A stretch of 64,000 nucleotides of DNA, taken from NCBI GenBank assembly GCA_963835255.1, contig CAWIFY010000022.1, forward strand, positions 35,784-99,783, in the 5' to 3' direction. The position numbers and the translations under genes are program-made. The DNA comes from Terriglobia bacterium. GTDB taxonomy: Bacteria; Acidobacteriota; Terriglobia; Bryobacterales; Bryobacteraceae. Positions 35,041 through 45,776 of this stretch are shown piece after piece. The notes beneath the pieces were generated by a model. That model ran no database searches. It was given only the letters and a program-made list of their open reading frames with translations, and was not told where the DNA came from. The stretch's first letter is position 1. Each line of letters starts with the position of its first letter.

Positions 35041-35065
35041 TGGCGGTGAGGGTGGGATTCGAACC
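35041..35065. repeat. 25-bp direct repeat of the tRNA-Ser 3' end (distal att site of island 1)
   Basis: TGGCGGTGAGGGTGGGATTCGAACC is identical to 42781..42805. The flanking sequence cannot form a T-stem, so this is a fragment and not a tRNA gene. Confidence 0.8.
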
Positions 35066-35550
35066 ATGAAGCGCCTAGCATGCTCTGTAACTTGTAGATC
35101 GCACGTTGCTGCTAATGCCAGAATCGCCATCAATTTCAAGAACCATTGCCCGATATTGCCCGGTGATCGGTTCTGGTTCCCCAGCCTGCCCTGCTCGCGC
35201 AAGCCGAAAAGCAGTTTAGCCGCCTGAAGTGCCCAGGATCAAAGACACCAAAGAGTCGCAACCAGTTCAGCCGGATTTTTCTTCAGAAAACTAGGAGAAT
35301 TCTCACAGCCCGAGCTCACTATTTTTCTGACCGATGCGCAACAGCATCGCTCAGAAGGTGCAGAATGTGTCCTTGTAGTGCGCGGTTCTGCCGAAAATGC
35401 TAGGATGCTCACGGGCTGGCCGGCATCGGGAAACCTGTGTCGTCCTGCCTAGAATGCGCCACAGCGTTTAAATGCGACTTAAGAGGGGTTGAAGTGCGGC
35501 TACTTGCGCTTCGCTTCTGCTGAGTGCCTTTCCATTCGATTATGAGGGGA

Positions 35551-35880
35551 TTATCCGTCGCGTTCCTTCTCACGTTGCTCGGTGCGGTATTCGTGAATCA
35601 CGCGGTCTACGTATTCCATCTTCTCTTCCTCGGTCATGCGGTCGGGGTCAAGTCCCTCGGCTTGCAGGCGGGCGCGGAACCGGGCCTCGCCGTAGGCGCG
35701 TAAGTGTTCCCATGATGCCCGCCGCTCCCGGCTCTGCCGCATCAGTTCGTCCGTGGCCTTCTGGCCGATATACTTGGGCAGCACTTCCGCCGCAGGCCGC
35801 GCCCGCTTCATGTCTTCCGCCGTGCATTCGGGGTTGTCCTCGTCAATGCGTTCGGGGTCGGGGGTTTCGGTGTCGCTCAT
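35551..35880 (-). CDS. hypothetical protein (BrnA-antitoxin-like N-terminal motif)
   Basis: 109 aa and acidic. DEDNPECTAEDMKRARPAAEVLP resembles the NPExT.EDF.RA.P motif of BrnA-family proteins. It is the third gene of the DUF433/PIN-like operon. Confidence 0.45.
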   Translation of the reverse strand: MSDTETPDPERIDEDNPECTAEDMKRARPAAEVLPKYIGQKATDELMRQSRERRASWEHLRAYGEARFRARLQAEGLDPDRMTEEEKMEYVDRVIHEYRTEQREKERDG

Positions 35881-36283
35881 ACCCGTATCTTCCTCCTGGC
35901 CGGGTTCGCGGAGGGCAGACGAAAGGGGCTAGAGCCGCCGTCCCTTTCGCGGCTTCCGGGGGTAATGGCATCTCGATAAAGCCATAGCTTCCTGGCGTTG
36001 CCGCATCGACGGCTGACGCTATCTCGGCCTCGTGTTGCTGCAAAAGCCGCCAAATGTTGGAGCCGAGGGCGACCAAGGCCAACTTCCGGCCCGTGAGGTT
36101 CTGTTGGTAGCGAATGTTCTGGTCAGCCGTAACCATAACGTCAAACCCTGCTTGTTCCGCATTCAGAAGCTCGCGGTTTTTCAATCGCTCCGGCCACTGC
36201 ATTTGGGCGACCGTGCGAACTTCATGTTCCGGCAGGAAGCGGCGTACAGGGACAGGGACGTTTTTATCGAAGAGGATGCGCAA
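35843..36283 (-). CDS. DUF5615-like PIN-fold putative toxin
   Basis: MRILFDKNVPVPVRRFLPEHEV...GFDVMVTADQNIRYQQNL is the Mut7-C/DUF5615 pattern. Its start overlaps the DUF433 gene. Confidence 0.65.
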   Translation of the reverse strand: MRILFDKNVPVPVRRFLPEHEVRTVAQMQWPERLKNRELLNAEQAGFDVMVTADQNIRYQQNLTGRKLALVALGSNIWRLLQQHEAEIASAVDAATPGSYGFIEMPLPPEAAKGTAALAPFVCPPRTRPGGRYGYERHRNPRPRTH

Positions 36284-36695
36284 CGCGGTGGCTCTTTACG
36301 TAGGTCAACACCGCCTCGACGCGCTCCAGCGAAATTTCAAACAGTTTCGCGATTTCCGCCGCGCTCTCTCCGTAGTCGGCATTATCGACAATGGCACTCA
36401 CCGGCATACGGGTGCCGCGCAGCACCGGAGCGCCGCTTTGGATTTCAGGGTCGATTTCGACGAGCGGACACTGTGACCAGTCGATTTTCCCTTTGCCACG
36501 GCTCCACCATTTGCCGGCCTGCGCCTCGCCCGAGAGTTTTTGGCGGCGCTCCCGCAGACGGCGTTCCATCGCATCGCTTACCAGTTCGTCCAACGTGATA
36601 TGTTCCTGCTGCGCCACTTCCGCCGCCCGCGCAAGGAGCTCCGGGGGGACGGAAGCATGCAGGTTTTTTTCGGGATTGGTCACGTTGCTGCTCAT
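36264..36695 (-). CDS. DUF433-domain putative antitoxin with N-terminal RHH-like extension
   Basis: PEIQSGAPVLRGTRMPVSAIVDNADYGESAAEIAKLFEISLERVEAVLTY is the DUF433 core. It pairs with the downstream PIN-like gene. Confidence 0.7.
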   Translation of the reverse strand: MSSNVTNPEKNLHASVPPELLARAAEVAQQEHITLDELVSDAMERRLRERRQKLSGEAQAGKWWSRGKGKIDWSQCPLVEIDPEIQSGAPVLRGTRMPVSAIVDNADYGESAAEIAKLFEISLERVEAVLTYVKSHRVAHPLR

Positions 36696-36847
36696 TTCTC
36701 TATTTTCGCTGCCGCGAGACTAGCAGAACATCCCGGTTCGGTAAAGCCGGATGCGCCGCCCCGGCTTCGCTTCTCCTGATCGGCGGTTCCGTCCGTTCAA
36801 ACCGCATTCCTGAGAGTGGGGCGGAATACCTCAAAGCGACTGTCAAG

Positions 36848-36912
36848 TTTGGGCAGCGTTACTGCCAACTTCTCTCAGTAAACTGCCAAAAATCGCTTGC
36901 AAACTTGGCAGT
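36848..36912. promoter_or_regulatory. iteron/operator-like ACTGCCAA repeats upstream of ORF 36961
   Basis: ACTGCCAA occurs at 36861..36868 and 36882..36889 (21-bp spacing) and inverted as TTGGCAGT at 36905..36912. There is also an imperfect TTTGGGCAG at 36848..36856. Confidence 0.45.
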
Positions 36913-36960
36913 ATTGGTGCAAGTTTCCTGTCACTTTACTGACAAAAAAAGGCAACGAAA

Positions 36961-44239: not shown

Positions 44240-44563
44240 CTAAAAGACACGGACAGCCTCACGTGTTGCGCGTTGCAGCACGTCCGGCTTCAGCATTTCC
44301 CTTTGCGACAGATCGGCCTTCAACCCGAGAGTGTCGGAAAGCTTGTTTTCAAGACCCACAGCACCCAGTAACGATAGCTTCTTGGCCTTGTCGAAATCCG
44401 CCATCAAATCGAGATCGGATTGGTCGTTAGCATCGCCGCGAGCTACGGAACCGAACAGCGAAAGCGTCGTAATTCCGGCAGCCCGAAGCTCAGGCTCCTG
44501 CTCCCGCAGTTTCGATATTACGCGCTCCCTGTCCATAGGAGATACTATGATATTTTCTCGCAT
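44240..44563 (-). CDS. MNT-type nucleotidyltransferase (type VII/II antitoxin)
   Basis: From the internal ATG: MRENIIVSPMDRERVISKLREQEPELRAAGITTLSLFGSVARGDANDQSDLDLMADF, carrying the GS..RG....SDxD minimal NTase motif. The longer ORF to 44641 only adds an integrase-derived fragment. Confidence 0.8.
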   Translation of the reverse strand: MRENIIVSPMDRERVISKLREQEPELRAAGITTLSLFGSVARGDANDQSDLDLMADFDKAKKLSLLGAVGLENKLSDTLGLKADLSQREMLKPDVLQRATREAVRVF

Positions 44564-44570
44564 CTCAACG

Positions 44571-44660
44571 GTCTCGGGATTGTAGAAAACATACGCCCAC
44601 TTGCGGATGCCGTGCCACGCACAATCACCCTTGCCGTTCATCGTTCAGCGGCAGTTCGAA
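44571..44660. repeat. about 90-bp duplicated integrase fragment
   Basis: GTCTCGGGATTGTAGAAAACATACGC..GGATGCCGTGCCACGCAC..TTCAGCGGCAGTTC matches 43195..43286 at roughly 90% with two small indels. It encodes ..AWHGIRK(C/W)AYVFYNPET. Confidence 0.75.
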
Positions 44661-44681
44661 ACAATAAGACCAAGCTCTTCC

Positions 44682-44987
44682 CTACCTGTTCTCAAGCAGC
44701 CGTTCGACATCTCGTGAGCCGTGAAGGATGGCGATCACCGTAAGCGGCCGTTTGTCGATTCGATACACGATGAGATAAGAAAAGACATTCCAAAAACGAA
44801 GCTCCTCGCGGGAACTGAGTTCTTCCCGCCGATGCCCCTGGCCGGGTGTCTTTACCAGCGCGTGAAATGCAGCGACGAACGATGCCATCACGTGACGCGC
44901 GACTCGCAAACCTGCTTCTTTGAGGAGGTGGTCTCGGATTTCCTGTAGATCTTCTTGGGCTTGGCTGGTTAGAAAGTAGCGACTCAT
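44682..44987 (-). CDS. ParE/RelE-family type II toxin
   Basis: 101 aa. ..AQEDLQEIRDHL...GHRREEL...LRFWNVFSYLIVYRIDKRPLTVIAILHGSRD is the ParE plasmid-stabilisation pattern. Confidence 0.85.
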   Translation of the reverse strand: MSRYFLTSQAQEDLQEIRDHLLKEAGLRVARHVMASFVAAFHALVKTPGQGHRREELSSREELRFWNVFSYLIVYRIDKRPLTVIAILHGSRDVERLLENR

Positions 44988-45268
44988 CCCATATGTCGCT
45001 TACGTTCCATCTCGTCCAGCAACCCGGCGGTGAATGTATCGCCATCCAGAACTTCACCGCGTTCCGACTGGAGAAATCCACGCTCAATCTTGGCTCGGAC
45101 CTCTCTTTCAGACATTGGGGCTAAATGAGCGTCCATTTGCTCGATGATTGCAGCCAGTTGCTCGCGTTCGTCGATCAGGCGGGCTAACAAACCATCAACT
45201 GACATTCCTTCGGCGTGAGCCGTCGCCATCAGACGAGCTTCAGTCTCGGGTGAGATATCTATGCTCAT
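44984..45268 (-). CDS. cognate antitoxin (ParD/RHH-like)
   Basis: 94 aa. Its stop overlaps the toxin start by 4 nt. The N-terminus is MSIDISPETEARLMATAHAEGMSVDGLLARLI. Confidence 0.7.
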   Translation of the reverse strand: MSIDISPETEARLMATAHAEGMSVDGLLARLIDEREQLAAIIEQMDAHLAPMSEREVRAKIERGFLQSERGEVLDGDTFTAGLLDEMERKRHMG

Positions 45269-45737
45269 AATAGCCCCGTCTTCCAGGTTAACGCCGATTG
45301 GAACGCGCCCTTACCACGTTTATCGTTGACGAAAGAATATCGGCTTCCCAGTGGGCAGACCAGAATCCGAAGGTTTAAAGACAATGTGTCAACAGTTTGA
45401 AGCCCAGCATTCAGTTGAGAGCTATCGCCGTGGGCCAAGCCAAGCTTGGAGCCTCGTCCGATAAGTGTTGCCCTCAACGGCCATCGCGATTGGCAATCAA
45501 CGCGATGCAGAAAATTTCGTCGTAGCGCGTTGATTTCCAGGCACTTTTGCTTCCGTATAGTGACAGTCTCCCGCGGGATTACGCTCACGCGGTCAACTGT
45601 CACCGTTTTGTCACTATAGACCCGTCAAAACCAGTGAAATCGAGGGAAACTGAATGATGTCAGATTCGGGTGTAAGTTATTGGCCGACAAGAGGATTAGT
45701 TGAATTTTGTACTACTTGCAAAACTGCCTGAATCGCG

Positions 45738-45776
45738 TTTCGAGACCGCCCGATTCAACCACTCTCGCACCTCACC
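45738..45776. repeat. 39-bp copy of the tRNA-Ser 5' half (distal att site of island 2)
   Basis: Exact match to 42832..42870. No 3' half follows, so it is not a functional tRNA. Confidence 0.85.

Follow-up and report, generated by a model that had tools for sequence, protein, structure and literature searches.

We analysed a 64,000-nt stretch of contig CAWIFY010000022.1 from a soil Terriglobia bacterium (hereafter the window), in which a tRNA-Ser(CGA) gene stands between two damaged integrative elements. The host assembly is metagenome-derived and comprises 5.01 Mb in 54 contigs, with a completeness of 87.7%, a contamination of 4.9% and a GC content of 0.565. tRNA genes were called with ARAGORN and confirmed with Rfam, and protein domains were identified with Pfam; other genomes, their contigs and their loci are given by our own handles (G, C and L numbers, respectively). 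An original prediction, made from the window's sequence, had placed here the tRNA gene, a 25-nt repeat of its 3' end and a 39-nt repeat of its 5' half. All of these coordinates were confirmed (Table 1), and both copies are exact and in direct orientation (25/25 and 39/39 identical positions, with the shorter repeat matching at 27/28 once the three preceding bases are included). Each repeated sequence occurs at just two places in the whole assembly, and no additional degenerate pieces of the tRNA were found in the window when approximately 25% mismatches were allowed. Chance is excluded as the source of the repeats because only roughly 2e-6 exact 25-mer pairs are expected in 64 kb. Since the repeats are exact and direct, occur nowhere else in the genome and have no degenerate pieces beside them, a dispersed repeat family unrelated to integration, which the original prediction had named as its possible undoing, is excluded as well. 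Within the tRNA gene only positions 42806-42831 lie outside both repeats. The present tRNA-Ser(CGA) is a mosaic, with its 5' part and promoter region derived from the upstream element and its 3' end and downstream region derived from the downstream island.

The upstream (5'-side) element spans 42871-45737 (2.9 kb), and the tRNA gene's 5' half together with everything up to 45737 is inserted DNA. Positions 32000-49500 of the window were searched against 40 related genomes for an empty site, the comparison that had been proposed with the original prediction. Six genomes of the same genus (G012, G011, G019, G006, G023 and G016) have such a site for the 5'-side element, with the tRNA gene directly after the deoxyhypusine-synthase-like gene. 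Matches to the tRNA and to the right flank share exactly 39 nt in G012, G011, G019 and G006 and 42-43 nt in G023 and G016. The fragment at 45738-45776 therefore occupies the ancestral position of the tRNA gene. The 31-nt spacer ahead of this fragment also resembles the spacer before the intact tRNA of G012 (tatcttgatag.ag). The intact gene thus has the displaced 5' fragment upstream of it, directly oriented, and an integrase gene lies between the two; the ancestral upstream neighbour has stayed with the fragment and not with the intact gene, as seen from the six congeners and from the conserved motif of the native spacer. That the upstream element supplied the tRNA's 5' half, as had been claimed, is strongly supported by the 39-nt overlap at the empty sites and by the same arrangement in nine other genomes.

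To survey the integrase clade, the related integrase of G008 was used as a query against one genome per species, which returned 78 loci. Among these, 26 with at least 43% identity were taken as clade loci, all from Terriglobia, Bryobacterales or Acidobacteriaceae assemblies. A tRNA-Ser gene lies within approximately 105 nt downstream of the integrase and on the same strand at 20 of the 26, being 47-105 nt away in all but two; most of these tRNAs have the anticodon CGA, one has TGA and three have GCT. At the remaining six loci no tRNA-Ser adjoins the integrase: four are partial integrase matches or are cut off where the contig ends, one has the integrase followed by a bare 5' half, and the sixth (L032, PLQW01000105.1) lies on a short contig on which no downstream tRNA was detected. 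In a quick maximum-likelihood tree of 13 integrase-then-tRNA-Ser loci plus more distant integrases, all 13 fell into a single clade (SH-aLRT 99). The more distant integrases (25-30% identity) have the usual arrangement, convergent with the tRNA 3' end.

Pattern searches of the genomes behind the clade loci found a displaced 5' half upstream of an intact tRNA in nine other genomes, at three tRNA-Ser isoacceptors. The fragment and the tRNA are separated by 21.5 kb in G041, 27.7 kb in G045, 33 kb in G043 and 34 kb in G007 (all CGA), by 39 kb in G049 (TGA) and by 75 kb in G047 (GCT). They lie on two contigs in G008 (CGA) and G046 (GCT), and in G044 (CGA) the fragment is found with an element arm on another contig. 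In all nine genomes the conserved element arm starts directly behind the anticodon loop or four bases further on. Element-type sequence stands ahead of the fragments in G008, G043 and G045, and these junctions are attP-like junctions of tandem arrays. Mismatches between fragment and intact gene occur at position 7 in G007 and at position 28 in G043, and the exchange is therefore placed 3' of position 28, i.e. within the anticodon stem-loop, where we infer the crossover from these alignments. Reversed integration at the 5' half is a property of the whole integrase clade in Acidobacteriota. We also considered that the elements might spread a 5'-half allele of the tRNA through the genus; this was rejected, as the empty-site genomes G019 and G011 already have the same allele. 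Separately, G007 (L014, C61 14819-18118) has two 5'-side-clade integrases in tandem before the tRNA, the proximal one frameshifted and the distal one with a replaced N-terminus, and no tRNA fragment lies between them.

Table 1 Features of the tRNA-Ser(CGA) locus and its two flanking elements, in window coordinates.
Feature	Position	Strand	Evidence
Displaced 3'-end tRNA fragment, T-loop to encoded CCA, 25 nt; far end of 3'-side island	35041-35065	-	Exact copy of 42781-42805
Distal arm of 3'-side island with 'ctacaagttacaga' motif	35066-35130	-	Motif common to far ends of related elements (3'-fragment junctions in G008, G043)
DUF433 protein, PIN-like (DUF5615) protein, small acidic ORF	35551-36695	-	Pfam PF04255, PF18480, PF18478
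Three island ORFs	36961-39135	+	No Pfam match
XerC-like integrase remnant	39959-40617	+	Pfam SAM-like domain only; comparison with G018 homologue, translation of tail
DUF5677 protein, island cargo	40620-41393	+	Pfam PF18928
Stub of 3'-side island integrase	42139-42707	-	tblastn with intact G008 integrase
Intact tRNA-Ser(CGA)	42781-42870	-	ARAGORN call; Rfam tRNA 54.4 bits
TGGTAAGTT, extended -10-like motif from element, ends 7 nt before tRNA +1	42878-42886	-	Same distance in closer element copies and integrase-less relics
Three GTGACA arm-type repeats, integrase-proximal arm	42907-42960	-	Conserved across integrase clade; overlap integrase gene end
Integrase pseudogene of 5'-side element	42935-43804	-	tblastn with intact G008 integrase; blastn/tblastn against G041 element; Pfam PF24624, PF00589
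MNT-type nucleotidyltransferase ORF with ~95-bp integrase fragment (44565-44661) at 5' end	44240-44661	-	Pfam PF01909; same fusion in intact G041 element
ParE toxin	44682-44987	-	Pfam PF05016; absent from G041 element
Ribbon-helix-helix antitoxin	44984-45268	-	Pfam PF23807; also in G041
GTGACA arm-type repeats, distal arm	45554-45617	-	Conserved in G007
Conserved distal arm abutting anticodon loop (cgcgattcaggcagttttgcaagtagtacaaaattcaac...)	45618-45737	-	Near-identical in G041, G044, G008, G007; recognisable in Ser(GCT), Ser(TGA) elements
Displaced native 5' half of tRNA-Ser, position 1 to last anticodon-loop base (39)	45738-45776	-	Exact copy of 42832-42870
TGTTATCTT, native extended -10-like motif, now ahead of fragment only	45791-45799	-	TGnTAT(C/T)TT conserved in G012, G015, G016, G044
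Deoxyhypusine-synthase-like gene, native upstream neighbour of tRNA-Ser(CGA)	45808-46785	-	Pfam PF01916; synteny across genus

The element of G041, a single 5.0-Mb chromosome assembly, is an intact relative of the window's upstream element, with 21.5 kb between the 5'-half fragment and the intact tRNA (G041:C1:4015049-4036548; L112/L113). Its mobility genes encode an integrase (PF00589), an HTH_17 excisionase (PF12728) and a MobA/VirD2-type relaxase (PF03432). Other genes encode a Ser/Thr kinase with TPR repeats, a pentapeptide-repeat protein, an MNT nucleotidyltransferase and a ribbon-helix-helix protein. Its cargo comprises an HEPN_Swt1/DUF499 protein (1108 aa), a methyltransferase-like protein (911 aa), an SNF2/NOV_C helicase (1173 aa) and a Schlafen-AlbA/HATPase protein, a cluster that is likely to be a defence system. 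Taking an integrative mobilizable element (IME) to have an integrase, an excisionase and a relaxase with no full conjugation apparatus, the G041 element is one and the window remnant is not. The window element matches both ends of the G041 element at 89-93% identity, and the approximately 19.4 kb between them are missing. Because the excisionase and relaxase have been deleted, the window copy no longer counts as an IME but as the relic of one; the 2.9-kb upstream element is what deletion has left of an integrative mobilizable element of roughly 21 kb.

The integrase gene of this remnant is damaged at several points when compared with its intact relatives, one of which, a 343-aa integrase in G008, lies 44 nt upstream of its tRNA on the same strand. 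The first ~21-28 codons are gone, and the gene further has a ~30-bp deletion, a ~66-bp deletion that shifts the frame at 43442 and a change of frame near 43175. PF00589 matches two frames in the window (E 3e-16 and 4e-10), compared with E 9e-31 for the intact relatives. The catalytic motifs (R...HxxR...Y, including TTMRYAH) are all still encoded but in differing frames, so that a tyrosine-recombinase catalytic domain is recognisable in the window but an uninterrupted frame is not. All four integrase pieces that had been called disrupted are real and damaged; truncations or frameshifts affect the three longer ones, and the fourth is just a ~95-bp fragment. The reading of this last piece had to be revised: because the intact G041 element has it too, the fragment at 44565-44661 is an inherited relic and not decay local to the window.

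The claim that both elements are immobilised fits the damaged integrases. An alternative is that the 2.9-kb remnant can still excise or move with help in trans from a related integrase and excisionase, in the manner of a satellite-like miniature element. Its two 39-nt repeats do not differ, and its arms, GTGACA sites included, have 89-93% identity to those of an intact element; furthermore, the tandem arrays and attP-like junctions of G008, G043 and G045 show related elements sharing one site. However, no second integrase of either clade was found elsewhere in the assembly, the excisionase is gone from the window, and nothing in the remnant points to selection for mobility. We therefore consider mobilisation in trans improbable.

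We give very little credence to an assembly artefact, in which contigs were misjoined at the short tRNA repeats and sequencing errors produced false frameshifts in the integrases. The number of contigs, the completeness and the contamination of the assembly would allow for such errors. Nevertheless, repeats of 25 and 39 nt are below the usual assembly k-mers, and the same architecture is found in single-contig or chromosome-level assemblies, e.g. G041. Equally, the integrase and element carry deletions of 30 bp, ~66 bp and ~19 kb relative to a 92%-identical relative, and deletions of these sizes are not typical of assembly errors. A DUF3179 gene just outside the island (33633-34916, minus strand) had looked split, and assembly errors were at one stage suspected from it. 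This was dropped, as the gene is in one frame with a single in-frame TGA (TY*TLCH) and no frameshift. The genome has a tRNA-SeC on contig C28, and the DUF3179 sequence fits a selenoprotein and not a pseudogene.

Similarly, a local tRNA duplication or rearrangement that left the 39-nt copy beside an integrase by coincidence is highly implausible: partial tRNA copies can come from duplication, and no activity ties the dead integrase of the window to the repeat, but the order of fragment, element, integrase and tRNA, with the arm starting at the anticodon loop, recurs in nine other genomes at three isoacceptors, and occupied and empty sites differ by exactly the segment between the repeats.

The original prediction had also presumed that the element supplied the promoter of the tRNA, and a conserved promoter-like motif, TGGTAAGTT, was indeed found in the element DNA. 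This motif, at -16, ends at the same distance from +1 (Table 1) at every closely related occupied tRNA and is preceded by three GTGACA repeats. The native counterpart, of the form TGnTAT(C/T)TT, is positioned between the deoxyhypusine-synthase-like gene and the tRNA in G012, G015, G016 and G044. In the host genome, TGnTAnnnT starts at -40 to -12 of 12 of the 41 tRNA genes, compared with a chance expectation of 0.7% per gene (a roughly 40-fold excess). It is therefore a credible type of tRNA promoter in this host, which suggests that many of the host's tRNA promoters may lack a canonical -35 element. Approximately 20 nt of element-type DNA, including TGGTAAnTT, also lie upstream of tRNA-Ser(CGA) in G018 (L019, C6 8083-8105) and G010 (L020, C1 ~8129-8150). 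In these two congeners the tRNA has no adjoining integrase, and the locus as fetched contained no 5' fragment. Such remains suggest a motif retained because it is needed, and they look like an element promoter fixed after loss of the element.

On the other side of the tRNA, the downstream (3'-side) island occupies 35066-42780 (7.7 kb). It has the features by which Islander defines an island (PMC4383910): a 3' fragment lies downstream in the same orientation, an integrase lies inside and the length falls within 2-200 kb. The integrase stub next to the tRNA retains stretches corresponding to residues 4-31, 30-78 and 115-188 of a 426-aa relative, in three frames, and its catalytic domain is absent. 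The intact 426-aa integrase is found in G008, directly downstream of the 3' end of tRNA-Ser(GGA). The repeat and this stub support the claim that the tRNA is flanked downstream by a decayed integrative island. The integrase piece itself had been placed at 42052-42658; it is real and damaged, and its span is corrected to approximately 42139-42707. Further inside the island, the XerC-like remnant keeps its N-terminal ~165 aa and its last 46 aa, having lost ~87 aa of the catalytic core. The three genes at the far end of the island are probably a toxin-antitoxin set.

Double occupation of a tRNA-Ser gene recurs in other genomes. G043 has both integrase types flanking tRNA-Ser(CGA), and G042 has the upstream type together with pieces of the downstream type. 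In G043 the tRNA-Ser 3' end is present in three direct copies (C7:14401, 43261, 66929; L123-L125), 29 kb and 24 kb apart, which look like a tandem array of 3'-side islands. In G024 (L100, C1 5527-7963), a 3'-side-type integrase by tRNA-Ser(GGA) is split by a ~1.1-kb transposase gene (6402-7517).

We consider it very probable that tRNA-Ser(CGA) is an integration hotspot into which two unrelated tyrosine-integrase elements inserted, each by way of a different half of the gene, and that both have decayed in place. Directly visible in the genomes are the repeats, the damaged genes, the empty sites and an arrangement that recurs across the family; the following course of events would produce them. 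A conventional element would have recombined in the T-loop and 3' end, rebuilding the last 25 nt or fewer of the tRNA and moving the native 3' end to 35041-35065; its integrase would then have decayed to a frameshifted stub of ~190 codons. The other element, an integrative mobilizable one, would have used the anticodon stem-loop for recombination, in the reversed sense, with an attP that carried tRNA positions 1-39. Ahead of these would have stood TGGTAAGTT and, at the integrase gene's 3' end, the GTGACA arm sites, so that both the tRNA's 5' half and its promoter would have been replaced on integration. The native 5' half, together with its promoter (TGTTATCTT), would thereby have been stranded 2.9 kb upstream, beside the deoxyhypusine-synthase-like gene. 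An internal deletion of ~19 kb, together with smaller deletions and frameshifts, would finally have removed the excisionase, the relaxase, the cargo and the function of the integrase.

Several points weigh against this account. The proposed GC profile over 35-46 kb gave values of 0.49-0.62, unremarkable for this genome, so that neither element is marked by its composition; taken by itself, composition speaks neither for nor against islands here. A two-hexamer promoter scan gave no match before either copy of the tRNA, and conservation of the extended -10 motif is the sole basis on which we infer that TGGTAAGTT drives transcription of the tRNA. No empty site is available for the 3'-side island because the flank is non-syntenic in every relative examined: a tblastx comparison of the tRNA-downstream regions of five relatives with the host genome found no common neighbour. 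The left boundary of this island therefore rests on the repeat, the integrase stub and the similarity of the arm. In addition, an assembly that is 88% complete and in 54 contigs leaves room for a helper integrase elsewhere or for small assembly errors in the pseudogenes. An exact-protein look-up of the deoxyhypusine-synthase-like protein, aimed at contigs of the same strain, gave no match.

A broader possibility, which we put forward tentatively and think rather doubtful as a whole, is that the upstream element belongs to an undescribed lineage of Acidobacteriota IMEs, often with defence genes, in which the integrases specialise in the 5' half of tRNA-Ser (CGA, TGA and GCT). Such elements might permanently rewire the host tRNA via a near-leaderless extended -10 promoter that survives loss of the element (G018, G010), and might leave a strong native promoter pointing into the distal element genes (here those for the ribbon-helix-helix, ParE and MNT proteins), giving expression that depends on integration. 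The native promoter reading into codirectional element genes was also considered as a feature of the whole family and was rejected, since such genes follow the fragment only in the subgroup of the window and G041.

The direct importance of the window copy is small, as it is an inert relic. The clade matters more widely, since most island-finding tools and intuitions assume that the 3' end of the tRNA is replaced with the promoter untouched, and this clade does the opposite at three serine tRNA genes. Expression of the host tRNA would then depend on element DNA, with some relatives possibly keeping only a scrap of promoter. These loci also provide a natural set of attP, attB and integrase for probing what sets the polarity of integration at a symmetric anticodon stem-loop, and they draw attention to mobile elements with defence genes in soil and peat Acidobacteriota, which have been little studied.

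The original prediction had called the 5'-half arrangement uncommon. It is indeed rare, but earlier descriptions exist (PMC6563490, PMC8371274). Integration at the 5' part of tRNA genes is reported to be considerably rarer than 3' integration, with cases given for Mesorhizobium loti (Zhao & Williams 2002, J Bacteriol 184:859) and archaea (PMC6563490, PMC1635311). Like the reversed-orientation element of M. loti, as outlined there, the element described here targets the 5' part, restores the gene with its own 5' portion and displaces the native fragment upstream, and the promoter must come from the element. Unlike the M. loti case, the host belongs to the Acidobacteriota, the target is tRNA-Ser and a whole clade uses three isoacceptor targets; this comparison is one of arrangement and not of integrase sequence.

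The pTN3-like integrases of archaea are likewise described as using a tRNA gene's 5' half, with expression of the rebuilt tRNA attributed to the integrase promoter (PMC8371274; Cossu 2017; Krupovic & Bamford 2008); a similar situation is called seldom encountered in bacteria (PMC8371274). As with these integrases of the Thermococcales, the attB is the tRNA's 5' half and the rebuilt tRNA lies downstream of the integrase gene, a resemblance that is functional only. The archaeal systems are plasmids and viruses, whereas those described here are bacterial IMEs with a separate extended -10-like motif directly before the tRNA. The upstream element also recalls the anticodon-loop class of tRNA sites, in which the 7-nt loop and symmetric stem are described as resembling a lambda-type core site (Williams 2002, NAR 30:866, via PMC8371274). 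As in that class, the identity block ends at the anticodon loop; the usual element, as the class is summarised there, carries the gene from the anticodon loop to the 3' end, whereas this one carries position 1 to the anticodon loop.

The Islander pipeline, as described, explicitly allows a 5' fragment upstream of a tRNA gene (PMC4383910). The downstream island resembles the 3'-end islands of Islander and of P4-like elements, with the integrase beside the tRNA 3' end and the displaced 3' fragment at the far end (PMC4383910), and is unusual only in its heavy decay and in the second, unrelated integrase remnant inside it. A full-text literature search found no description of such 5'-side elements in Acidobacteria. 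The 5'-side mode of integration is therefore already known, though rare, from M. loti and from archaea, and what is new here is a bacterial clade that uses it.

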